From the NCBI GenBank assembly GCA_977017575.1, contig CDRNVI010000043.1:186001-250000 (forward strand): a stretch of DNA of 64,000 nt, read 5' to 3'. This document shows positions 5,976 to 64,000 of this stretch, in pieces (position 1 is the stretch's first letter; every line of letters starts with the position of its first letter). This DNA is from Paramoeba atlantica. Taxonomy: Eukaryota; Protista; Discosea. The notes below the pieces were generated by a model. The model was not told where the DNA came from. It ran no database searches and saw only the letters and a list, made by a program, of their open reading frames with translations. The position numbers and the translations under genes were made by a program.

Positions 5976-6090
5976 TTAATCCGAAGCAACGACTTAGAAT
6001 CCTCATGTACAAATGCTACGTGGTGTTTATCAAATAATTCAACTTCATGAGTGACACTAATAAAATAACAAAAAGAGTATTATTCATTAA

Positions 6091-7000
6091 TAATTTTCTT
6101 TTTTAGGCTCTTCGTTAAACGCGGTGGTTGCTTTCAACTTAGAAGTCACTCATGCTGCGCGCTTCGCGTTGAAAACTACCGCCGCGTTTAACGAAGAGCC
6201 TAAAAAAGAAAATTTGTCCTGGAAAACGGAAAGATTATAGCCAAAAATAGCCGAATTTCGGGTAAAAATGGGGTGATTTTCGCGTATTTTTGCTCTCAGA
6301 GCACTAAATCCGACATTTGCGCGTGGGAAATCACTCGCAGGCATGAACGAAAGCCTACCGAACGTATTGGGTAGAGAATGCGACTCCAACCATACCATTC
6401 TTTCGACACAAAAATGCCCCTTTAGGTCCGAAAAATACTTTTTCACCTTTTTTAGTCAAAATTGGGTCATTTTGAGGGGCGCACCACGGTTCGAAGAAGT
6501 GATACCTTGCGAAAACAACTGCGGAGAAAGCTAGTGTAGGTCCCAAACTATCAAAATACAATAGGGGAAACGATTTTGGAAAAATATTTTTTTTGTCATT
6601 TTTTTCGCCAAGTTGAAATTTTTTTCAAAAAATTTTTTCCGAAAAAATCCGAACTTGGCGGACCCGTCCTGCGCATACGCGGGGGGGTCACCCCCGGGTA
6701 GGGGGGTGGAAAATGCGCGCCAAGACCCCGGCTACCCTTTCTGCGGTTTTTTTTCGAAAACTAATTTTTTCGAAAAAATTTGCTCGACCATGCCCCCCCC
6801 CCCCTGGACCCCCCCCCTGGACCCCCCCATGGACCCCCCATTTTTTTCAAATTTTTTTTTCAGTTTTGGACCACCGGAGCCCCCTTTTATATTTTTTTCT
6901 TCTATTATATTACTGTGTTCCTCTTTATATTTTCACTGTTTTTGTTCACTTTTTTTTCAATAATCGAGTGTAGAGCGGTAGTTTTACAACCACCGCAATA
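6091..7000 (+). repeat. ~900-bp dispersed repeat, copy A
   Basis: Near-identical to 8453-9341; begins with a 95-bp TA-flanked hairpin (6106-6200). Confidence 0.9.
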
Positions 7001-7140
7001 AAGACACATACATGTATAAACGAAACTAACTCAACTATGATATTAAAAACTATTGCGGTGGTTATACAACTACCGCCCTATCCTCGATTATTGGAAAAAA
7101 GTGAACAAAAACAGTGAAAATATAAAGAGGAAAACAGTAA
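6909..7140. repeat. ~230-bp imperfect palindrome
   Basis: attactgtgttcctctttatattttcactg...tcaataatcgag is mirrored by ctcgattattgga...cagtgaaaatataaagaggaaaacagtaat. Confidence 0.85.
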
Positions 7141-7297
7141 TGAGCCCCGCGTCACCAATAAGTGACCCCCCTTATTTTTTGCATAGGGGGTCGTGGGGGG
7201 GTTATCATGCCACGTTGTCGTTCAAAATTTTGAGATCTGTACGTTCCCGCTGTTTTTAGCTCATTTTAAGACTTTAAATTTCAGTAAAAAATAGTAT

Positions 7298-8096
7298 TTG
7301 ATTTTTCAACCTTTTTTTCCAAAAATGCCAAAATCACCATATCGACTCCCAAGAGGGGTGCTTACTTCTAGTGGAAAGGTTCTTTTAAAGATGAGGCACG
7401 GACAAGGAGTACCAATAAAAAAGCTAGCCCGTGATTTCAACGTTTCTAGAAGGATAGTTAAAATATATTTGAACGCAAAAAAGCTACCCCAGTATACACT
7501 TTGAGTCCTGAGCGAAACAAAATAATGAAAACTCGTAAAACGAGAATTAAGATAATAACCCCTCTCGACCCTGCTGGAGTACCGAGATTCAATTCATCAA
7601 GGCGCATAACAGCCCAATTGAAGAAAAAGAATATACAAGTTTCAAAAAGAACAGTACAGAGAGACTTATCATCCCTGGATTACAGATATGCCGCCCGGCC
7701 GCTATGCCAAGGGCTTACCGAACACGACAAAAAGGAAAAAGAGTTCAATTTGCGTTGAATTACAATATGGATACTGCCCGTGTCATCTTTACGGACGAAA
7801 AAATATTTGATACGAATGATAGCAGAAGAAAAATGTGGGTAAGGCGCGGTCAAAAAGCAGCCCCGCGTCAAAAAGTACGTTGGGCACCAAGATGCCAAGT
7901 TTGGGGTGCTGTAGGGGTGGGGTGGAGGTACTTGGTAATTCTACAAAATGACACATCTATTACAAGTGAGACGTACATAGAAACATTAAAAGAGGTAGAT
8001 TTCCCCCCTAATCGTATTTTTCAGCAAGATAGGGCAACGGCACACACTTTCGATGAGTACTCATCCAAACTACCATTACAATGCGATCTGCGGTAG
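7298..8096 (+). pseudogene. Tc1/mariner (IS630-Tc1) transposase, split over three frames and truncated before the catalytic E
   Basis: HTH IKKLARDFNVSRRIV; second HTH SSRRITAQL...VSKRTVQR; VIFTDEKIF, WGAVG, FQQDRATAH. Confidence 0.85.
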
Positions 8097-8137
8097 TTTG
8101 GATGAGTACTTTCATTTTCGTCGGAGGGCGGTAATAG

Positions 8138-9674
8138 TACTGTACCCCCACCCCTAGTTATCTGTCGCTACTTTTCGAGAAAAGGTGACAGATAACTAGG
8201 GGTGGGGTAGGGGTGCGACAGATAACTAGGGGTGGGGTAGGGGTGCGACAGATAACTAGAGGGGTCAAAGTGCGACAGATAACTAGGGGGGTCCGTCGCC
8301 AAAAAAAGCGAGGGAACGAAATGTAACAGAAACAGCATCTTTATTGCCTAGGAAGATTCCTTTCTACCCCGATGGGGTACTATAAGCTGAAGACATGCGT
8401 CTACGGGTTAAAAGAAGCCCAGAGAGTAATTCACACATTTTATTGGGTTAAAATAATTTTCTTTTTTAGGCTCTTCATTAAACGCGGTGGTTGTTTTCAA
8501 CTTAGAAGTCACTCATGCTGCGCGCTTCGCGTTGAAAACTACCGCCGCGTTTAACGAAGAGCCTAAAAAAGAAAATTTAGCCTGGAAAACGGAAAGATTA
8601 TAGCCCAAAATAGCCGAATTTCGGGTAAAAATGGGGTGATTTTGGCGTAATTTTGCTCTCAGAGCACTAAATCCGACATTTGCGCGTGGGAAATCACTCG
8701 TAGGCATGAATGAAAGCCTACGGAACGTATTGGGTAGAGAATGCGACTCCAACCATACCATTCTTTCGACACAAAAATGCCCCTTTAGGTCCGAAAAATA
8801 CTTTTTCACCTTTTTTAGTCAAAAATGGGTCATTTTGAGGGGCGCACCACGGTTAGAAGAAGGGATACCTTGCGAAAGCAACTGCGGAGAAAGCTAGTGT
8901 AGGTCCCAAACTATCAAAATACAACAGGGGAAACGATTTTGGAAAAATATTTTTTTTGCCATTTTTTTCGCCAAGTTGAATTTTTTTTCAAAATTTTTTT
9001 TCCGAAAAAATCCGAACTAGGCAGACCCGTCCTGCGGATACGCGGGGGGGTCACCCCCGGGTAGGGGGGTGGAAAATGAGCGCCAAGACCCCGGCTACCC
9101 TTTCTGCGGTTTTTTTTCGAAAACTAATTTTTTCGAAAAAATTTGCTCGACCATGACCCCCCCCCTGGACCCCCCATTTTTATCAATTTTTTTTTTCAGT
9201 TTTGGACCACCGGAGCCCCCTTTTATATTTTTTTCTTCTATTATATTACTGTGTTCCTCTTTATATTTTCACTGTTTTTGTTCACTTTTTTTTCAATAAT
9301 CGAGTAGTTTTACAACCGGTAGTTTTACAACCACCGCAATAATTATGTTGCATCCATGGGTTAAAGTAAAACATCGGGAGCTATTGGACTCCAATCACAT
9401 GATGGAGGGGATACCGAAGCGGACGATGATGGGGATGATGAAAGGGATGATGATCCAATTTTCCGATTTTGACCGTAGAACGCCACGCAAAACCATTAGC
9501 CTAAAAGCAGAACAGAAAAAAATTAAACTTTCGCTTCTATTTTTATAAATTTTTCATTTTGTTTAGAAAGGCGACAGATAACTAGGTCGACGAAAAAAAA
9601 ATGTTCGAAAGGCTGAAAAGCGACAGATAACTAGGGGGGTGGGGGGGTGACAGATAACTAGGGGGGGTACAGTA
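8138..9674. mobile_element. TA-flanked TIR element carrying repeat copy B
   Basis: TA-ctgtacccccacccctagttatctgtc ... gacagataactagggggggtacag-TA; multiple subterminal gacagataactagggg repeats. Confidence 0.75.
8453..9341 (+). repeat. ~900-bp dispersed repeat, copy B
   Basis: Direct repeat of 6091-7000. Confidence 0.9.
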
Positions 9675-9714
9675 GTTTGGATGAGTACTCATCGAAACTA
9701 CCACAATCCCAAAA

Positions 9715-10167
9715 ATTCAACTTGGCGAAAAAACTGGTAAACACAATATTTTTTTAAAATCGTTTCCCCTGTTGTATTTTGATAGTTTGGGACCTACATT
9801 AGCTTTCTGCGCCGTTGTTTTCACAAGGTACCCCTTCTTGGAGCCGTGCTGTGCCTAGAAAAATGACCCATTTTTGACTAAAAGCAAAATAGCATTATCT
9901 ACCCAATACGTTCGATAGGCTTTCATTCATGCCTACGAGTGATTTCTCACACGCAAATATCAGATTTAGTGCTCTGAGAGCAAAAATACCCTGAAATGAC
10001 CCCATTTTTACCCGAAAATCGGCTACTTTTGGCTATAATCTTTCCGTTTTCTTCAGCTTTCCAGACCAAATTTTCTTTTTTAGGCTCTTCGTTAAACGCG
10101 GTGGTCAACGCGAAGCGCGCAGCATGAGTGACTTCTAAGTTGAAAACAACCACCACGTTTAACGAAG
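9715..10167 (-). repeat. Dispersed repeat, partial inverted copy C
   Basis: Reverse complement of the first half of copies A/B (e.g. aatcgtttcccctgttgtattttgatagtttgggacctaca). Confidence 0.85.
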
Positions 10168-10397
10168 AGTCTAAAATTATCCAATAGTACTGAGCCATAG
10201 TATTGAGCCATAGAGCCTAAAAATATATTTATAAGTTTACTTCATTCACCACGAAGCGCGCAGCATTACCTTTATCATCGGACATTAACCGTCTCCTGTA
10301 ATAAAGCTCTAGACAAAAAATAACCTCAAATAAATTCTTCCGTAAATACATCCTTCTCTGACAAAATTCTCATAATGCGATGAATCGTGAATATGCT

Positions 10398-11104: not shown

Positions 11105-11235
11105 GGCCGGACAGGACCGATGCCTTTGGACAGATAAAATGCCTCTGGAGAGACAAAATGCCTCTGGACAGATAAAATGCCTTTGGACAGATAAAATGCC
11201 TTTGGACAAATAAAGTGCCCTCGGACAGGAAAATA
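11105..11235. repeat. Minisatellite, ~20-bp unit
   Basis: (aaatgcctYtggacagata)n. Confidence 0.85.
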
Positions 11236-11344
11236 GCCTCCCATCCATTAACCTTCCTCGCCATATTCATCAGTGGTGGAGCTCCTCCGCACGGGTAAAT
11301 TAGGTCACACAGCTTTCATCTTCTCTGTGAGCTCACCCGCGCTG

Positions 11345-12410
11345 CTTGTCCGCGTTCCACAATCCTAGACATAGATTCTCAGTGCGCGACCCGCGCGCTG
11401 GAGCTTTGCCTCCAGAAGTGGGCTTTGCTCACGGTTGGGCCTTGCTCGCAAAAGAGGGCTTTTGCCTCCAGAAGTGGGCTTCGCTCACAGTTGGGCCTTG
11501 CCTCTGGCCAATCCTGCGGAAGGGGTAGACATAGGTTCTCAGTGCGCGACCCCGGAGGGCGCGGGTCGCCAAAAGATATAATTCTGTCCCAGCGCTAGGC
11601 ACCTGCACCCTTATCTGTCATAGAAACTCACACCCTTATCTGTCATAAATGCACCCTTATCTGTCATAAATGCACCCTTATCTGTCATAAATGCACCCTT
11701 ATCTGTCATAAATGCACCCTTATCGGTCATAATGCACCCATATCTGTCATAATGCACCCTTATCTGTCATAAATGCATATATATATGCATATCGCTATAA
11801 TGCATATCGCTCACGCGACCCCCGCTAAATAGGGGGGGAAGGTGGTAGTTGTGGGGTATGGAGGCCTCTCGCAACTCCGGGTCCTCACCGGGAGCAAAGG
11901 TGAATTTATTGGTCTCCCCAACTTGACACTATGCGCAGCATTCGCCAGTTTCTGTCGCAGACGTGTAAACAAGGTCTGGTCCATTGGCCCGGCCGGCCCC
12001 TCCGTGCGTTCGGCCTCTCATATTCCCCAAAACAACTACCACCTTCCCCCCATTTATCAGGGGTCGCTCGCGCGACCCCCGCTAAATAGGGGGGGAAGGT
12101 GGTAGTTGTGGGGTATGGAGGCCTCTCGCAACTCCAGGGCCTCACCGGGAGCACAATTGAGGTTACCTATTTTCGCTCACGGTTGGGCCTTGTTCGCAAA
12201 TGGGGGCTTTTGCCCCTAGAAGTGGGCTTCGCTCACAGTTCGGCCTTGGCTCTGGACAATCCTGCGGAAGGGGTAGACATAGGTTCTCAGTGCGCGACCC
12301 CAGAGCGCGCGGGTCGCCCAAAAATATAATTCTGTCCCAGGGCTACACTCCCAATTGGGCCTTGCTCGCAAACGGGGGCTTTTGCCTCCAGAAGTGGGCT
12401 ATGTTGACAG
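11345..12410. repeat. Composite repeat block (three related ~200-bp units plus two ~90-bp duplicates)
   Basis: Recurrent tagacatagRttctcagtgcgcgaccc and gggcttttgcctccagaagtgggc; duplicated cgcgacccccgctaaatagggggggaaggtggtagttgtgggg at ~11813 and ~12071. Confidence 0.8.
11604..11776. repeat. Minisatellite, 20-21-bp unit
   Basis: (tgcacccttatctgtcataaa)n. Confidence 0.9.
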
Positions 12411-12685
12411 TTGACATTTCCCAATAATATATTTATCTAAATGTAGCCCCGGCACTGCCATCTGTGCGGATGGTACTAACACCGACCTTTTTTATTAGTG
12501 GCATTCTATCTGTCCATTGGCATTTTATCTGTCCATTAGTCATTTTATTTGTCCAGGGACATTTGACGTGTAAAGTGGCCCAAATTAAGATGCAGAAGAA
12601 AACATGACATACATTTTCCGTTTTTGACAAGACGACTTCGGCATCATTTTACGCGAATTACGCGCTTGCCATACGACAAGCAATA

Positions 12686-23168: not shown

Positions 23169-23226
23169 AATAATTTATTTCTGTTTCTAGACACATGTGA
23201 AATGTTAGTAAAGTATTTTCGGCTCG

Positions 23227-24412
23227 ATGCCATCGAAAATGTACCCTAAAATTGATTTTTTTGAGTTTTTTATAGTTTTTGTTTCTTCACCCTAGATTCA
23301 TATTGGGGTGCTTTTGCAACGTTTTTTCATCCATTTTTACATGCTTTTTACCAAGTTTTTACCAAGTTTATCCTCAAAGCATAACGTCCGATGTTAAAAA
23401 AGCCTATTGTTTTCGGAATTTTTTTCACTCTTGCTTCATTCATAAGAATGTAGCAAGTGGACGTGGAAGTGGCGGAATGGACGTGGAGGTGGCGGAGTGG
23501 ACGTGGAGGTGGCGGAGTGGCAAGAATTCAAAGTTTGAAGCACATGGTGCTCAGGCGGCGAGTTCAAACCCGCTCATCGCAATATTCCTCACTCTAAGAG
23601 GCTGGGCTGATAACCGACTAGGCCCAGTACTCGGAGGACCGTCCCGGACCCTCCCCTCAGGGAACCAGCTCCCTTACCCGGCTCACACCTCTTGGGTAAG
23701 CCGTGTTGACGTACAATTCGTCGACGCAGCGTGTTGGCAACAGCACGTTGGTGCCGCCTTGGACAAGCAGAAACTGGTAGAGGACGTCGGTCTCGGAACT
23801 TCCAAATCTGTCTGTGAAGGGTCTGGCTTGCCAGTGACCATCCGGAGCAATCCGGAATGATTTGGATTTTTGGATTGGATCATAAGAATGAAGTACTGGT
23901 GTTCGCAGCGATTGCCTCGCCTTCCCTCAGGGCAAGTGCACGTAGTGCTTTCCCTCTATGTAGATTGCGTATTGTCAATCAGTTTCTCATTGCACAATGT
24001 ACTTCTATTCCCCTTCAAAAGCACGATAGCGACGTTTCAAACGGATATACGGGAAGGGATATGTCAGTACATGGTGCAAGGAGAAACGTAGGGGGAAAGA
24101 CCGAGTACGTGCACTTGCCCAGAGGGAGGACAGAAGCAATCGCTGCAAACACCAGTACTTCGTTCTTATGAACGAAGTAAGAGTGAACGAAACCGATGAA
24201 ATTCGGAAAAAAGAAACTTTTTTAACGTCGGAACTTAGGTATTGACGATAGACAAGGTAAGAAAAAGTATGTAAAAATGGGTGAAAAAAAATGAGAATGT
24301 AAAAATGGATGAAAAAACGTTGCAAAGGCACCCCAATATGAACCTGGGGTGAACAAATGAAAACTATAAAAAAATCAAAAAAATCGATTTTGGGGTACAT
24401 TTTCAATGGCAT
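23227..24412. mobile_element. Foldback-type element (whole-length imperfect palindrome)
   Basis: Left arm atgccatcgaaaatgtaccc... mirrors right arm ...ggggtacattttcaatggcat; symmetry continues inward to ~24030. Confidence 0.8.
23440..23890. mobile_element. 429-bp SINE/retroposon-like insertion with 11-bp target-site duplication
   Basis: tcataagaatg at 23440-23450 and 23880-23890; the opposite foldback arm shows the empty site. Confidence 0.7.
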
Positions 24413-24757
24413 TAATCCGTATTTTCTTTAATGACAGAAACTTAGAAGACTAGGATCAAAGATTTTTTAGAAGAGAAGATAGAAATATTCCGAGAACACT
24501 TGCGACGACTCTATAGGCGGTTAATGTTTCGTAGCGGAAAATGGAATGACCAATACCCGTACATTCTTAAGGATTGTCGGTTTCACGATCAGTAAAAACT
24601 TTGATGAGCATTGAAGTTAGTAATGTAGTGTAAGAAGGTTTAGCATCCCAAGAAGTGTTGCGTCCAGTATTAATAGTAGTAACTACATTGTAGCTTTTTG
24701 CATTTCAACGCAGCGTGATCCATGTTCTACTCGCAACGCCCACCAAAGCTACCCCCA

Positions 24758-25588: not shown

Positions 25589-26042
25589 AAATAAGGTAAA
25601 AAAAAAATTGGCGCCGCTTCGCGACGCCTTTTTTGACTATCATGGACGAAAAGTCTTCTGAAATGTGAAAGCTAAGCGGTTAAACTGAACCATATTCCGT
25701 ACTTTCTCTGTTTCTCCAAAAAAAATCACCCTTCAACTTTGAGATTTTCTCTTGCATATGACTCCTTACGAATGGACGCAAGTACAATGCTCCTCCAAAT
25801 TTAGCAACACAATACATCGCTCCCATTTCACTTCAAGATTCCTGAGCATTTCTCTGCGAAAGCTTAGGTTCTGTACGCTGTTCGACCACTGCTCAACCAT
25901 AGAATTAGCAGATTCCTGTGTTGGTGTCAGTGCCTTGATTTGTGGCCTGCTAACGTTTGTGGTTCACACTCTCGCATTTGTGCTTCCTTGAGGCGAAAAG
26001 TTAAGCCGCGCTCCATGTCCACATCTTGGTACGATTTCCAAT

Positions 26043-36265: not shown

Positions 36266-36401
36266 GTCCGGCGTTTCAGTCTTGTACGAGACGTGACATG
36301 AGCAATTAGATGTTATGAATCTAGCTAATGTTTTAAAAATAAATTGCCGTCAAAGTACATGTATTTATTGAGGGAGATACTCCCTCCCTACCCCATATTA
36401 G

Positions 36402-36586
36402 TACTGTCCCCTCCCGTTTAAACGCACCTCGTTTTCCGCGAAAAATGCGCTTAAACGGGGGGTCTGAATCACTACGTAAAAAAAAAAATTGACCCCGCTT
36501 CGCGGCGCCGGGCTCTTTCCTTCAACTCTATGTGCGCTTAAACGGGGAGGTCTGACCGGGTGCGCATAAGGGGAGGGGGGACAGTA
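36402..36586. mobile_element. MITE, TA-CTGT family
   Basis: TA-ctgtcccctccc ... gggaggggggacag-TA. Confidence 0.75.
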
Positions 36587-36662
36587 ATAGAATTTCGCCC
36601 GACAAAATATTTTCAGAAAAAAGTTTTTTTTTTCGCAAAGAATCAAAGGCAACACCATAAAC

Positions 36663-36783
36663 TGAGAGTGTTGCCAATCCCTGGTCAGTAATCGGCCCAG
36701 GGACATAGCAACTCCCCATTATCTCGGGCGTAGTAAACACGCCTTGGCTTGCCTGGCACTGAGATCAGCCATTGGAAAAAAAA
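36663..36783 (-). repeat. 3' terminal segment A of the YR element
   Basis: 121 bp, reverse complement of 42258-42378 with a single mismatch. Confidence 0.95.
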
Positions 36784-37338: not shown

Positions 37339-37767
37339 TCAGATTATGATTGGGTCCATATGTGAGAGAGCGATTTCGATTCCTCCGGGCAACAGACCGT
37401 CTTTGACTCGGAATCCGAACTCTTCCCGCGTTAGGCCGTCTGCTGGATTCTCCTTAGATTTGAGATAAAAGATGCGAAACGATAGCCCAGTCTTTCTCCT
37501 TTCTTCGATGTCTAGGAGCTGCTGACAAATTGAATGTCGAACTGATGTGCGCTTTTGGAGTGCCCGCACAACGTCCATATTATCGCATCCTAGAATCACA
37601 TGGGGAGCAAGTTTCCACCCTGTGATTAAGGCGGCTTTTGCCGCAGAGAACTCAGCATCGTATATCTCCCGATACAAGTATTGGAATACTTTCTTGCAGC
37701 AAAATTTCTCCCGATTGACGGAGTACGCATAAACCAGTGTGGGTCGAAGATGCGTCCGAAAAAGCAA
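37339..37767 (-). CDS. RNase H C-terminal part of the YR element pol (out of frame with RT)
   Basis: IYDAEFSAA, LGCDNMDVV, SKENPADGLTR: DIRS-type RNase H E/D/D motifs. Confidence 0.85.
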   Translation of the reverse strand: MLFRTHLRPTLVYAYSVNREKFCCKKVFQYLYREIYDAEFSAAKAALITGWKLAPHVILGCDNMDVVRALQKRTSVRHSICQQLLDIEERRKTGLSFRIFYLKSKENPADGLTREEFGFRVKDGLLPGGIEIALSHMDPIII

Positions 37768-41959: not shown

Positions 41960-42257
41960 AAGAAATAAAATTTAGAGCAAGTTCCTACGCATGTTTTAAT
42001 AGATTAGATACGGTTGTGACTTATCCTGGTCATCTTTGCTCTCTCATTCTATATTCACCCTTTCTGTATTTCCACCCTCACGCTCGCCAGAATATGGATA
42101 CTTGCTGACTGCTTTATGTCAGCATATTCCTGTTTCTCTCTGTTTTCTCTCTCGCTCTTTTTCCTTACTACTTCAAGCAATCGGCGAAACTAATGTATTC
42201 ATCTATACATACGCCTTCTGTATTTTTTTTTCTGCTTTCTATTCTTTCGTCTTTCTT

Positions 42258-42421
42258 TTTTTTTTCCAATGGCTGATCTCAGTGCCAGGCAAGCCAAGGC
42301 GTGTTTACTACGCCCGAGATAATGGGGAGTTGCTATGTCCCTGGGCCGATTACTGACCAGGGATTGGCAACACCCTCATTATCACAGGCTTCATAAGCAC
42401 CTTGATACCGGGACCAAGCCC
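42258..42421. other. Internal complementary region (ICR): reverse complement of the joined element ends
   Basis: 42258-42378 mirrors 36663-36783; 42376-42421 mirrors 43872-43918; they overlap on TCA/TGA. Confidence 0.9.
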
Positions 42422-42819
42422 AGTGACAGGCATGCCCATTGGCACCGCAGATCAGTTCCCTCCTCCCCTTCTTGTCATCATTCTAGGTTTTCAAACGTGA
42501 GACAAAACTCTAAGGGGCGTGGAATCTGTTGAGCATCTTTTATTAGATACTTCACACAGATGCGTAGCCGTAAAGGCATTGCATTCGAAATCCGTGGAAT
42601 AATGAACGCAGTGCAAAACTGACCCGACTGCGCAAGTCGTATAAGGTGCGTCACACTGACGAATCCATTTTGTTTTTCTTTCTATCCATTTTTTTTTCTT
42701 TACTTCCAGTACCCTGGAAAGCAACACAGACAGCAGTGGTACTGTGTGATGATCAGCAATATTTGCTTACAATAATCATTAAATTTACGACTACGAGAAG
42801 CCAATCCTCAATGATCACT

Positions 42820-43488
42820 CGAAGTGAAGTGCCAACCGTCAGTCCCGAAGGACTTCGAGGCAAAGTATAACCACCAACCGTCAGTTCCGAAGAACCCCGA
42901 GGTGAAGTGCCAACCGTCAGTCCCGAAGGACCTCGAGGCAAAGTATAACCACCAACCGTCAATTCCGAAGAACCTCGAGGTGAAGTGCCAACCGTCAGTC
43001 CCGAAGGACCTCGAGGCGAAGTATAACCACCAACCGTCAATTCCGAAGAACCTCGAGGTGAAGTGCCAACCGTCAGTCCCGAAGGACCTCGAGGCAAAGT
43101 ATAACCACCAACGGTCAGTTCCGAAGAACCTCGAGGTGAAGTGCCAACCGTCAGTCCCGAAGGACCTCGAGGCAAAGTAAAACCACCAACCGTCAGTTCC
43201 GAAGAACCTCGAGGTGAAGTGCCAACCGTCAGTCCCGAAGGACCTCGAGGCAAAGTAAAACCACCAACCGTCAGTTCCGAAGAACCTCGAGGTGAAGTGC
43301 CAACCGTCAGTGCCGAAGGACCTCGAGGCAAAGTAAAACCACCAACCGTCAGTTCCGAAGAACCTCGAGGTGAAGTGCCAACCGTCAGTCCCGAAGGACC
43401 TCGAGGCAAAGTGTAACCACCAACCGTCAGTTCCGAAGAACCTCAAGGTGAAGTGCCAACCGTCAGTCCCGAAAGACCTCGAGGCAAA
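42820..43488. repeat. 78-bp tandem repeat, ~8.5 copies, inside the YR element leader
   Basis: gaagtgccaaccgtcagtcccgaaggacctcgaggcaaagtaWaaccaccaaccgtcagttccgaagaacctcgaggt. Confidence 0.95.
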
Positions 43489-43832
43489 TAATAAATTGTT
43501 ATTATAATAATAATAATCGTCGACCGTGAGTCACAAATTTCCTCGAAGTAGTTCATTTTGGCGCCGAACGGTATGTTTTCCCCGGTCAGGGCCAAAACGA
43601 ACCGGAATAAAATCACTAATTTAGTGCCAGGCTCGGTTCCACATAGCATGTCAACATGTAAATAAAATTTATATCCTATCTTTGGGTCGGAACCAAGGAT
43701 TATAGTGTGTATATTCAACAAACCTGTATGTTCAAACAAATCAGTATGTTCAACAAACCTGTATGTTTAACAAACGAAGAGATGGACAAATATATTAAAA
43801 AAAAAAGTCGTACCTTATCGTACAATAAAACT

Positions 43833-43905
43833 CTTCACCCTCACACTTCGTCTTGTTAAGAAGACGACGCCGGGCTTGGGACCGGTATCAAGCGTGTTTA
43901 TGAAG
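43833..43905 (-). ncRNA. Twister self-cleaving ribozyme (P1 type, with P5 hairpin)
   Basis: Minus strand: P1 CUUCA, L1 UAA, P2 ACAC, GC, UUGAUA, P4 CCGG, L4 UCCCAAGC, CCGG, P5 UCGUCUU/AAGACGA, P2' GUGU, GAGGG, P1' UGAAG. Confidence 0.93.
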
Positions 43906-44173
43906 CCTGTGATAATGATAGTTTTAAGAAAAAAAACGCACCTTTTGGACCACTCGAGGCACCCCTTCTTCGAAAGCAATTTGAAAACTCGAATTTCCCA
44001 CATACATGCTTTTTTCAACTGGAAGCGTGTGATACGCAAGACCGTAGAGGAAGGAGGAGGCGAAAGGTAAGAAGCAGAAGGCAGAGCCGGTTAATGACGG
44101 GTTATACTGCGCCCAATTATTTTTATTTTGCACAAAGTTGTACGCGAAGAAGTTTATATTATAAACTATTTTA

Positions 44174-44925
44174 TATACACCCATGGACAGAAGTGTGCCC
44201 CCGGCCTGGCAAATGTGAATTTTTTTTACCCGTTTTTTCTCATTTTTGCAGCATTCGAGAGATCTCGTTCCCCTAGCGAAGAGCTTTGCCGCCTTTGCTT
44301 CATAGGGACCCCCTGGTACCCCCTGTTTCCAAAAAACATGGTTTTATTGCCCGTTTTTTGGAACACAGTCAATTTCTCTAGTATATTATCTTTTTTTCTA
44401 CCTGTTTTTTCTTCATGAGGACCCTGCCTCGTATAAATCATAACGAAACATCGTTTTGTCGATTTCGGAGCGAACAGAGATAGTCAAACAGCATAAATCC
44501 ACACAACTTTGTAGTTTTAAGCCACACAACTATGTAACCCTGACAAAGGCCACAGGAAAGGCGTTTAATGCTCTAAAACGTGCCCCACATAGATAGAAGG
44601 TGTTGAATTCCATCAAATCTGTTCCTAAACGTATGCAAATAGTTATTCAGACCAATGGGGAGCATTGCGGATATTGATACTTCTTCCTTTTTTCTCATTT
44701 TCTCATTGAAAGGGTGATTTTTTTTCTAGATGTCTAATGCACCATTTTTTGTTTTTGGTCTACTTCGGGGTCACCACCAGAGCACCAGGGGGTCCCTATG
44801 AAAAAAAGGCGGCAAAGCTCTTCGCTAGGGGAACGAGATCGCTCGAATGCTGCAAAAATGAGAAAAAACGGATAAAAAAATGGCATTTGCCAGACCGGGG
44901 GCACACTTCTGTCCATGGGTGTATA
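44174..44925. mobile_element. MITE with ~150-bp TIRs
   Basis: TA-tacacccatggacagaagtgtgcccccgg...cataggg mirrored at 44785-44925. Confidence 0.85.
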
Positions 44926-47553
44926 TTATATTTCCTCCTTTCTCGTCTTTGTTGTCTATGAAGCCGAAAGAAGTGGAGAAATGCATTGCCCTGTATAAAC
45001 TTTGGTTCAAAAGAACCACGTGGAAGGAACGTCTGCAATCATTACTCCTCTGTCCAAAAATTCGGGCAGTGCCTGCCGAATATAAATGAAAAGGAAAATG
45101 AAAGTGAATTGTTTTATCATGCACTTATAGTGCAGAGATTTACTCACCATGTCCTTATCCCGCATACGACGGGTGGATCATGTGAGGTTTCGTCCTCGCC
45201 GGAGGTGTGCGGGTGCGGAGAGCTGGCGTCCCAGGTGCAGAGAGCTCGGTTGTCATGTGCAGGTGCAGAGAGCCGGATGCGTAATCCCCATATTACAGTT
45301 TCGGGGGCAATCCGGGTGCAGAGAGCTGCGACAGAGCCGAGGTGCGGAGAGCTGGGCGACCGCCAGGTGCAGAGAACCGAGTCTCGTCGGCGGAGGACAC
45401 GTCTAGTGGTCCTCAAGGGAGGCCACCGTGACGCATGGCCCTCTCGGAGAGGAAAAAGACAAGTCGAAAAAAGCCGAGAGGGGGAAGCACACTCACTCCA
45501 GGGGAGTGAGTCGGGGAGGGGTGAAGGGGTGAAAGCGCGTCCCCTGCTTCAGCGACATGAGGGACAGTTCCGACTTTAGTGCCGGCCGGCAACGGGCATA
45601 AAAATACAGTAAGAGCATGCCCGTTGCCGGGGAAAGAAAGGATTAACTAAGGAAAAAGTACCAAGGTACAGAAACTGTATCTTTCGAAAAAGAGGAACAA
45701 TGTGAGCAATATATTTACTATCCCCCTTATTTAATAGGGCTACGTGTCACCCGCCCTTTAATAGGGCTATTTTGTCTGGAAGGCCAAAAATTATTTCTGG
45801 GAAAGTGCCAATAAGTTGTCGAATGCGCCGCGAAGCGGCGTATTTTCTTTTCCGCATCTACCCCAACAACCAAAAGTGTATCAAAAGGGAGTAGGACCCT
45901 GTTTCACAACGATAAAAAAAGCACCGCGAAGCGGCGCCGATTTTTTTTCCATATTATTTTCCATCTCCACCCCCCCCCACTTTATTTGGGCTTTTTGCCC
46001 AAAATCGGAGTCCTATTAAATAGGGGGGGATAGTATATGAAAGAGGCAGAAGAAACAGCAACGGAGGCAGAAGACACAGAGTCATGAAACTTGATCCAAA
46101 GTTTCATGAATATGTGAAGGAATGTGTGAAGTGAGGGGTGGTTTAAGGAGTGTGAATTAAGATGTATGTTGAAGACGGAGTCAAATTTTATTATTTTCAT
46201 AATTATTTGTGACAGAAGTGGAGTCCTAAGGAGGATTTGTGCTCGAAAATCTGGCATAAAAGAAAATTTTGTGATAAAAGATGAAGTTGTGTCTGAAAAA
46301 TGCATGAGCACGTTTTTCTATATACAGTATTGTATTTTTTAGGAATGGGCGCAACATAACCCGTCTGTAGCCGTTAATTCGATAGAGCGGTCTTTCTGTG
46401 GTAAGGTACGGTACTCACATACACCGTACACATGTATGTGCATGAGGACAAAGAGCGGACTGTGATATTGAATGCGTGATGTGTCCACAGCGACGACACT
46501 TGAGATGGAGATAGTGACCCATGCTATCCTTCATGCGTGGATCATTTCCTTCGTGCTTTTGTCTCCAACGAGCGCACACAGGATCATCCGGTGAGCAAAT
46601 TGCGTCCTACCAACAGGTCTGTACACTGGAACTATTTTAAATCGTAAATAATTTAGGAGGGAAGAACCTGTGTGTCTCCGAGTGGCTGAAGTCTTTGCTG
46701 GAGACTGGGGAACGTAATGTTGTTGCACAGCCGCCTTTCTCCCAATGCGTTGTACGCCGCTCGGCGTTCTCTGCAGGACTGCAACTCACCAGTCTCGGGT
46801 GTAATGTCCCGAGAGGAACTTTCCTCGTTTGTGGGAAGTGATGTGCCCCACCGTTTTCGGGAGCGAAGCACAATAGAATAAGGTTTGGTTGAATAAGAAA
46901 ATTAGATTTTCTCTAATAGATACCAAATTTCTCAAATAGAACTAAATAAATGATTTCAAGAGACATGATTCCATTCTACATACGTTTCCATTGTCACATA
47001 ATGTTTTCATTATCACTGGTTAACCATTAATTCATTGGTTAATTAATTAATTGACTATTAGGGTATGATTATCGTACCACTATTGCAGTATTGAAACATT
47101 CTCTCAATAGTACTCCATGTAACTAAACGTGCCGCATTGATGACCACTCTTTCCAACAGAAAATATCAATTTAAGCTCTTTTTTCGCGATCAGTTTAAAA
47201 TATAGTTTAAAATATTTAGAAGAATATCAAATAGAAAGAAGATAAATGATGAATCAGATTGGGGCAAGATATTTTAAGATTTTTCATTTCGCAAGACTTT
47301 TTTGTACTAACCTCTTATGAGAATATAAATACTTATGATGATGGAAATTTCAAACTTCGACTAAACAGGGAATTGTCGACTCTTAAATTATGGAGGATAT
47401 TACTGTAACCAATTAAAACATTTACAAAACAAATACTAATGCTAAACTCTACAAAAATTATATGCTGGGAAACATAGATTGTATTAGACAACAAAACTGT
47501 AGACTTCAATGGTTCGAATTTTAGAAAGAATACATGGGCACTTGTGTTTTCCG

Positions 47554-62569: not shown

Positions 62570-64000
62570 TGGTAGTAGTCGTCGTACTCGTGTTACGCGG
62601 GATGCTCGTAGTAGGGGTAGTACTCGTGTTACTCGGGATATTTGTAGTAGTAGTCGTACTCGTGTTACTCGGGATATTTGTAGTAGGGGTAGTACTCGTG
62701 TTACTCGGGATATTTGCAGTAGGGGTAGTAGTCGTGTTACTCGGGATATTTGCAGTAGGGGTAGTACTCGTGTTACTCGGGATATTTGCAGTAGGGGTAG
62801 TACTCGTGTTACTGGGGATATTTGCAGTAGGGGTAGTACTTGTGTTACTCGGGATATTTGTAGTAGGGGTAGTACTCGTGTTACTCGGGATATTTGTAGT
62901 AGGGGTAGTACTCGTGTTACTCGGGATATTTGTAGTAGGGGTAGTACTTGTGTTACTGGGGATATTTGTAGTAGGGGTAGTACTCGTGTTACTCGGGATA
63001 TTTGCAGTAGGGGTAGTACTCGTGTTACTGGGGATATTTGCAGTAGGGGTAGTACTTGTGTTACTCGGGATATTTGTAGTAGGGGTAGTACTCGTGTTAC
63101 TCGGGATATTTGTAGTAGGGGTAGTACTCGTGTTACTCGGGATATTTGCAGTAGGGGTAGTACTTGTGTTACTCGGGATATTTGTAGTAGTAGTCGTACT
63201 CGTGTTACTGGGGATATTTGCGGTAGTAGTCGCACTCGTGTTACTCGGGATATTTGCAGTAGGGGTAGTACTCGTGTTACTCGGGATATTTGCAGTAGGG
63301 GTAGTACTTGTGTTACTCGGGATATTTGCAGTAGGGGTAGTACTCGTGTTACTCGGGATATTTGCAGTAGGGGTAGTACTCGTGTTACTCGGGATATTTG
63401 CAGTAGGGGTAGTACTTGTGTTACTCGGGATATTTGTAGTAGTAGTCGTACTCGTGTTACTGGGGATATTTGCGGTAGTAGTCGCACTCGTGTTACTCGG
63501 GATATTTGCAGTAGGGGTAGTACTCGTGTTACTCGGGATATTTGCAGTAGGGGTAGTACTTGTGTTACTCGGGATATTTGCAGTAGGGGTAGTACTCGTG
63601 TTACTCGGGATATTTGCAGTAGGGGTAGTACTCGTGTTACTCGGGATATTTGCAGTAGGGGTAGTACTTGTGTTACTCGGGATATTTGCAGTAGGGGTAG
63701 TACTCGTGTTACTCGGGATATTTGCAGTAGGGGTAGTACTCGTGTTACTCGGGATATTTGCAGTAGGGGTAGTACTTGTGTTACTCGGGATATTTGTAGT
63801 AGTAGTCGTACTCGTGTTACTGGGGATATTTGCGGTAGTAGTCGCACTCGTGTTACTCGGGATATTTGCAGTAGGGGTAGTACTCGTGTTACTCGGGATA
63901 TTTGCAGTAGGGGTAGTACTCGTGTTACTCGGGATATTTGCAGTAGGGGTAGTACTCGTGTTACTCGGGATATTTGCAGTAGGGGTAGTACTCGTGTTAC
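62570..64000 (-). repeat. 36-bp tandem array (~40 copies, runs off the window), probably coding TANIPSNTSTTP repeats
   Basis: Unit tactcgtgttactcgggatatttgcagtaggggtag; open minus frame act gca aat atc ccg agt aac acg agt act acc cct. Confidence 0.9.

Follow-up and report, generated by a model that had tools for sequence, protein, structure and literature searches.

A tyrosine recombinase retrotransposon with an internal junction copy that likely restores bases lost to a predicted twister ribozyme

Why should a retrotransposon carry in its own leader an inverted copy of its two joined ends that is exact over a short tract of the 5' end and imperfect beyond it? The question arises for a tyrosine recombinase (YR) retrotransposon of 7.26 kb that occupies the minus strand (43918-36663) of a 64,000-nucleotide stretch of Paramoeba atlantica DNA, here called the window. 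Our analysis leads us to believe that this internal junction copy (ICR) likely serves as the template from which bases lost to a cut are restored, and that the 5' end of the element's RNA likely comes from a predicted twister ribozyme. The initial annotation of the locus had already proposed a repair template for the cleaved-off end. The idea gains support from the tested role of the ICR in DIRS-1 (PMC7192593, in the part of the paper available) and from a breakpoint that falls two nucleotides past the predicted cut (cut+2) in two elements whose reverse transcriptases (RTs) are 25% identical. Separate selection to keep the copied bases exact, as the accompanying claim had it, is not needed if these bases are recopied from the ICR in each cycle, which would give the match automatically.

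The element has gag-like, YR and RT/RNase H ORFs (Table 1). These genes, the lack of a DDE integrase, the internal copy of the circle junction and the shared terminal trinucleotide are the features of the order DIRS. The plus-strand trinucleotide TGA lies at both limits of the element (36663-65 and 43916-18), and the TCA of the 5' terminus is found again at 36663-65 and 42376-78. No Pfam match was obtained for ORF1. In the YR, residues R156, K183, H250, R253 and Y284 are invariant across five aligned relatives. The RT ORF, separated from that of the YR by 345 nt, is frameshifted near its end in this copy; an uninterrupted RT protein of 567 aa from another contig (P0009) is 97% identical to it. 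The final ~53 nt of the 3' end (A) fold as a terminal hairpin, a candidate self-primer of a kind also proposed for DIRS-1 (PMC7192593, in part), and a degenerate inverted terminal repeat sits 54 nt inside that end. Between the 5' end (B) and the ICR, the leader holds a tandem array whose depth is very high in two sequencing runs of the same organism (X3 and X4) and which is probably a satellite also present elsewhere.

Table 1. Coordinates of the element and its leader within the window
Feature	Positions	Strand	Remarks
A, element 3' end	36663..36783	-	terminates in TCA
Degenerate inverted terminal repeat	36717..36742	+	26 nt, 81% complementary to 43892-43917
Remainder of RNase H	37339..37767	-	different frame from ORF3
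ORF3, reverse transcriptase and RNase H start, 480 aa	37652..39094	-	RT/RH motifs
ORF2, tyrosine recombinase, 293 aa	39439..40320	-	weak PF13495/PF00589 matches
ORF1, gag-like by position, 347 aa	40916..41959	-	weakly similar to L009 ORF1 (E 1e-4)
ICR, A arm	42258..42378	+	120/121 identical to A (36783-36663, minus)
Long imperfect hairpin, whole ICR and 34 nt beyond	42273..42455		-95.2 kcal/mol
ICR, B-like arm	42376..42421	+	matches B (43918-43872, minus)
78-bp tandem array in leader, between B and ICR	42818..43494		
Predicted twister-P1 (RF03160)	43904..43834	-	cmscan 37.4 bits, E 2.5e-5
B, element 5' end, portion copied in ICR	43872..43918	-	
5' terminal trinucleotide TCA	43916..43918	-	junction / predicted YR crossover site

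The ICR is, as first described, the reverse complement of the circle junction. Its A arm departs from A at a sole position (36667/42374), the two arms share one TCA, and from this TCA the match to B is exact for 21 nt (42376-42396). The later changes were also read correctly: A>G (42397), the loss of one nucleotide (after 42400) and TC>GA (42412-13). It had been overlooked that the last of these is one micro-inversion, 2 nt long and flanked by GG and CC. Homology to B stops at 42421 (blastn: 47 columns, 91%, E 2.6e-11), and the copy, which was indeed said to end early, halts in L4/P4 of the twister described below, without P5, P2', the 3' internal loop and P1'. Such repeats of the element ends are far beyond chance. 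Also overlooked was the long hairpin around the ICR (z -6.6 as RNA, z -5.0 as DNA), which forms because A holds a degenerate inverted copy of the start of B. Positions 42395-42421 of the B-like arm are the predicted landing site for the 3' end of the cDNA. Long pyrimidine tracts lie nearby on the plus strand (42020-42260 and 42670-42710, the second ending in AG) and resemble trans-splice acceptors antisense to the element. As a general feature, be it an antisense splice site or a polypurine primer, the tract is unsupported, since it is not seen beside the ICRs of the relatives L003, L009 and L053.

The twister-P1 match at the 5' end spans the full model (1-68 of 68), with P1, U^AA, P2, T2, P4/L4 and a 3' loop GAGGG in the order of that type. 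Its score is under the Rfam gathering score of 67.2, lowered because P3 is absent and P5 carries an insertion, and no Rfam match in the window reaches the gathering threshold. The U^A cleavage position and the helix names are those that we take from the twister literature and read onto the Rfam alignment, which places the predicted cut at 43900^43899. A cut at this site would remove 19 nt (B nt 1-19, 43918-43900), the TCA integration site included, and on this model the twister likely sets the 5' end of the element's RNA. The ICR had further been suggested to pair with the twister and unfold it. Pseudoknot-free folding agrees, with 46 nt of B paired to the ICR in the uncut window leader, 22 after the cut, and 50 in the relative L053. 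In the window, however, transcription would reach the ICR ~1.5 kb later than the twister, which leaves room for co-transcriptional cleavage to precede any pairing. Across the window and 81 loci a twister descriptor gave two matches (mean of 0.33 in three shuffles), a count that is not independent evidence because the descriptor was written after both twisters were known.

The second of these twisters belongs to L053, whose RT and YR are 24.7% and 26% identical to those of the window element and for whose leader no DNA similarity to that of the window was reported. In L053, B lies at 8-56 and the ICR at 332-379, only ~280 nt away; the contig is without a 3' end, and the 5' boundary of the element is set by ICR homology only. 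The twister-P1 match (28-122, 22.6 bits, E 0.02) is below the gathering threshold, has a 3' internal loop off consensus and predicts a cut at 32^33. The ICR is exact over 8-34, that is, over 27 nt made up of the 25 bases that would be lost and 2 more. The next position, cut+3, shows C>T; a single nucleotide is then missing where P2 meets T2, L4 carries another C>T, and the copy stops as L4 ends. The hairpin of this ICR has a z of -6.5. The exact tracts of the two elements, 21 nt and 27 nt, are thus unequal in length and end at the same ribozyme position, cut+2.

Exactness over the bases that the ribozyme would remove, as claimed at the outset, is observed in the window copy, but the clustering of differences beyond the cut is not significant on that copy alone when only B is considered (Fisher p 0.14-0.26; (26/47)^k = 0.09-0.17; permutation 0.20). 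With the A arm included, p is 0.003-0.016. B and ICR are both available for two elements, that of the window and L053, which together have no differing column among the 44 before the cut and 7 among the 52 beyond it (Fisher p 0.014, or 0.030 by events). Joint permutation gave p 0.022 for no difference before the cut and, by a post hoc criterion, p 0.002 for a first difference <=3 nt after it. The A arms are identical to A over 116/116 nt in L003 (178-293) and 122/122 nt in L009 (1-122, with the terminus TCA as in the window), and identity is therefore not simply decaying with distance from the junction. The L003 ICR contains the reverse complement of a twister 5' half at ~60-95.

Other copies in the same organism bear on the same point. 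Among the matches listed in four sequencing runs of one study (X1-X4), we found four ICR-like contigs (X1 record 7, X2 record 14, X3 record 21 and X4 record 30), probably two or three alleles. They differ from the window ICR at 4-19 places, 42386-42388 (nt 11-13) among them; 2-3 of the differences per contig probably fall near 42406-42424. All four listed contigs retain G42397 and have no insertion at 42400. The special status given earlier to the terminal ~21 nt therefore does not stand as plain conservation, and the prediction should be co-variation of each ICR with its own B. Runs X1 and X2 contain a collapsed 94-nt contig (42285-42378) with 0 differences and a depth roughly double that of the ICR-only contig (19.2 vs 10.3 in X1; 272.9 vs 141 in X2), which suggests that A and ICR are identical in these runs and that the single A-arm mismatch is private to the window copy. 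A local inverted duplication unique to the window copy, the case that would have told against a general role, is rejected in view of the ICRs of L053, L003 and L009 and of the same-organism contigs.

We propose that the element is transcribed by host read-through, as it lies on the host-gene strand: 15 of the 16 ORFs of >=250 aa in the window are on the element's (minus) strand. This strand bias, the long uninterrupted ORFs with eukaryotic Pfam families and an RT family with a Bodo saltans member suggest a kinetoplastid-type eukaryote. The predicted twister cut would precede transcription of the ICR, release the RNA and remove the 19 nt that include TCA. The RT would then produce single-stranded cDNA, the 3' end of which could fold back on its landing site in the ICR and be extended through nt 19-1, TCA and the A arm, and this extension would give a complete circle junction. 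Integration of the circle at a genomic TCA would, by analogy with DIRS, be the work of the YR. On this scheme the ICR would be the source of bases 1-19 and of A, which would account for their match to it, and bases 20-47 would derive from the RNA's own end. In B this second segment has to function as a ribozyme; in the ICR, annealing is all that is asked of it.

The mismatches in this second segment most likely weaken an RNA-RNA duplex that would trap the twister, yet may be tolerable for cDNA annealing, which is the least certain step. Each element has two substitution events. Read on the cDNA strand, all four produce G-T or tandem G-A pairs; read on the RNA strand, they produce A-C or pyrimidine mismatches, and for four in one direction p is ~0.06. 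The mismatches weaken the RNA duplex of B and ICR from -56.9 to -39.3 in the window and from -45.7 to -30.1 in L053, and the cDNA and RNA strands differ by 6 kcal/mol in both elements with RNA parameters and by 0.7 and 1.5 kcal/mol with DNA parameters. The landing site in the cDNA is unpaired at 0.53 with the native ICR vs 0.41 with an in-silico B-like ICR, and no such effect appears in RNA. We regard strand tuning of the mismatches as suggestive only, a lead and not a result.

These patterns could have other causes. The ICR might be an ordinary DIRS-type end template in which mismatches drift neutrally along the annealing arm, the twister being a passenger or having no role in the RNA end and the exact tract stopping near the cut by chance. 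We find this unlikely: although the single-copy statistics are not significant and both twisters, known from sequence only, score below the gathering threshold, the cut+2 breakpoint and the three kinds of change recur in L053 despite its distant RT and unrelated leader DNA, G42397 and the deletion are common to the diverged ICR-like contigs, and both sides of the T2 pair are different in the two twisters (GC/GC in the window vs AC/GT in L053). It is very unlikely, in our judgment, that the ICR is mainly an RNA switch whose pairing with B protects some transcripts or holds RNA ends together, full-length ends being kept without cDNA repair. An uncleaved transcript would carry host sequence at its 5' end, and such a switch does not account for a match that is perfect up to the cut and no further, the mismatches weakening that very duplex; the ICR also spans an end-to-end junction with one shared trinucleotide, as befits a circle template. 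What speaks for a switch are the minimum-energy folds, with 46 and 50 nt of B paired, and the closeness of ICR and B in L053.

Least probable of all is the version of the initial annotation, in which the mismatches were selected to inactivate a second, antisense twister within the ICR. The copy lies opposite the element's RNA strand and is missing the 3' half, with P2', the 3' internal loop and P1', so that it has no cis twister fold whether the changes are present or absent. Of the four substitution events, three are transitions or wobble-preserving, the L003 ICR retains a consensus-like P2/T2/L4 start, and the pyrimidine-rich tract that precedes the window ICR on the plus strand, and makes antisense transcripts conceivable, is a feature that the three relatives do not share. 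That the changes hit P2, the T2 dinucleotide or L4 in both elements still lends the notion of a disabled ribozyme some slight weight.

To place the preferred reading, an ICR that restores the bases lost to the cut, in a wider setting, we turned to related elements. An RT profile search returned 12,606 representatives at E<=0.001, of which 923 reach E<=1e-30. A metagenome scan confirmed 148 of 499 candidates, the best 80 of which were kept as 79 loci, and genome contigs contributed 2 more. The window architecture was seen in 3 of the 59 loci of >=2.5 kb within this set (best 80 of 148 metagenome relatives plus the 2 genome-contig loci). In L003, L009 and L053, as in the window, gag lies downstream of the ICR, and a YR profile made from the window's close homologues matched 4 of 81 loci (L003, L007, L009 and L053). 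Fifteen loci were assigned to a direct-repeat type. A quick RT tree was made from 4 proteins and 39 loci that had a contig >=3.3 kb and an RT ORF >=300 aa, 43 rows in all. On it a single change divides the 4 elements with an ICR from the 15 of direct-repeat type, as in 0 of 500 shuffles; the tree is unrooted with long branches, and the split has an SH-aLRT of 91 and is not starred.

Several other loci were noted in passing. L052 has an inverted pair in a different arrangement, and L047, a direct-repeat relative (20-145/5809-5934), has an extra perfect 21-nt inverted pair (1-21/472-492) that encloses a highly structured 5' region and possibly represents an intermediate architecture; neither was counted among the window-type loci. 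L004, L008, L010, L050, L057, L071 and others form a large, apparently unnamed gag-ORF2-RT/RH family (the 923 representatives at E<=1e-30) with direct end repeats, which often hold hairpins (L045, L050, L078). Rfam models detected no ribozyme in 12 loci at E<=0.5, a search of one 66-kb batch that missed the L053 twister and is hence insensitive. A hammerhead-core scan gave one unconvincing match with a weak stem in a 5' flank (L071 ~198, minus), probably by chance. An exact scan of metagenome contigs for the B/ICR motif gave 0 matches, and RT scans found no relatives in viral contigs and 2 short fragments in genome contigs.

Considered together, the window element, L003, L009 and L053 may form an undescribed YR clade with a promoter-free, cut-and-rebuild way of life, a reading that we advance tentatively. 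The twister would excise the RNA from host read-through and destroy the integration site, which the 5' inverted junction copy would rebuild, with mismatches tuned by strand such that the RNA duplex is broken and G-T/G-A pairs are kept for cDNA priming. The clade would descend from VIPER-type direct-repeat relatives, the junction copy having been inverted and relocated, and an ICR would then have originated a second time.

The element works like DIRS-1, has the gene order of VIPER and fits neither. In DIRS-1, deletion of the ICR abolishes retrotransposition (PMC7192593, in part). As in the window, the ICR of DIRS-1 and DIRS-like elements is described as complementary to both outer ends, with a 3-bp junction overlap that also begins and ends the element, and as needed to complete the ends (PMC3266345 and PMC7192593, both in part). 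A short, partly complementary 'divergent ITR' with a right extension is likewise known there, and the hairpin and A layout of the window ICR correspond to it without the conserved ITR (PMC3266345, PMC7192593, in the parts available). According to the same partial texts, however, the DIRS-like ICR lies near the 3' end, the ITR is strictly conserved over 31-304 bp and the junction is NTT, whereas in the window the ICR is 5' of gag, the inverted repeat is short and degenerate and the junction is TCA. Further differences are the order of genes, with pol (RT-RH-MT) before or overlapping YR in DIRS-like elements and YR preceding RT as separate ORFs in the window, where no methyltransferase family is among the Pfam matches at E<=0.01, and the window's predicted 5' ribozyme and left ICR arm that is imperfect beyond the cut.

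With VIPER/TATE, which belong to kinetoplastids, the element shares the order gag-like, YR, RT/RH and likely a host of kinetoplastid type; the direct repeats of its sister loci could be of the split type, and its RT family includes the Bodo saltans protein CUF79501. In the published descriptions of VIPER/TATE, the direct repeats are split (A1...B1 A2 B2) and the ORFs of YR and RT overlap (PMC6681497, PMC12278014, in part), in contrast to the inverted, 5' junction copy and separated ORFs of the window. Self-BLAST of the window element gives only inverted end copies and no split direct repeats. The RT searches returned no named VIPER/TATE protein. CUF79501 is not named in the supplements of the VIPER paper, and the word 'ribozyme' is absent from its text (PMC6681497, in the portions available for each).

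Ribozymes that release element RNA are known from elements that use target-primed reverse transcription. Twister variants at the 5' end of the non-LTR element Perere-3 were proposed to free its RNA (PMC8501958, in part), and the HDV-like Pr77 ribozyme of L1Tc/ingi was proposed to release element RNA from a polycistronic transcript (PMC5814959, in part), as we suggest for host read-through here. In these cases little or no element sequence is lost, as L1Tc cuts at +1 (PMC5814959) and P1 of Perere-3 is supplied by the target duplication (PMC8501958, both in the parts available). In the window, by contrast, the predicted cut is inside the element and would remove the recombination site, which the internal template would restore. 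Our search of the literature, subscription journals and Repbase being outside its scope, found no ribozyme-bearing YR element, and the present case would add a ribozyme to a retrotransposon order in which that search found none. It would also show that direct and inverted junction-copy architectures can switch within one RT family. Restoration of YR element ends rests on a 1985 model and one direct test, the ICR deletion in DIRS-1, and the RNA ends, primer and circle closing are still unclear. The window element offers a nucleotide-level prediction of the RNA 5' end, and its natural mismatches would tell RNA-derived bases from ICR-derived ones, so the template-switch step is directly testable.

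The surroundings of the element are themselves repetitive. It sits in a multicopy host repeat (36268-36662 and 43919-46250; summed contig depth up to ~30x that of the flanks) with nested inverted repeats (44173-44317/44784-44926 and 44088-44115/46346-46373), and a motif of this repeat recurs at 1994-2101, 2612-2638 and 25589-25634. In X2 and X4, contigs pass from 36660/36661 to 43932 across 22-25 letters of other sequence, as empty paralogues of the host repeat would. No B-type circle junction is among the contigs listed, which is no evidence either way since contigs drop rare molecules. The A-derived stretch 42276-42315 (= 36726-36765) reaches a summed depth of ~4400 in X2, against ~140 for the element body, and has many different flanks, with one contig joining 44345 to 36727; it likely represents abundant non-autonomous derivatives, like SIRE for VIPER. 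Another copy, seen in X2-X4, matches 42400-42526 and has unrelated sequence before 42400, so that the predicted landing site is kept and the junction is not. Elsewhere in the window there are further dispersed direct and inverted, MITE-like repeats (6089-10176, 997-1633, 11137-12564 and 23203-24436) and an array of 72-bp units at 62572-64000.
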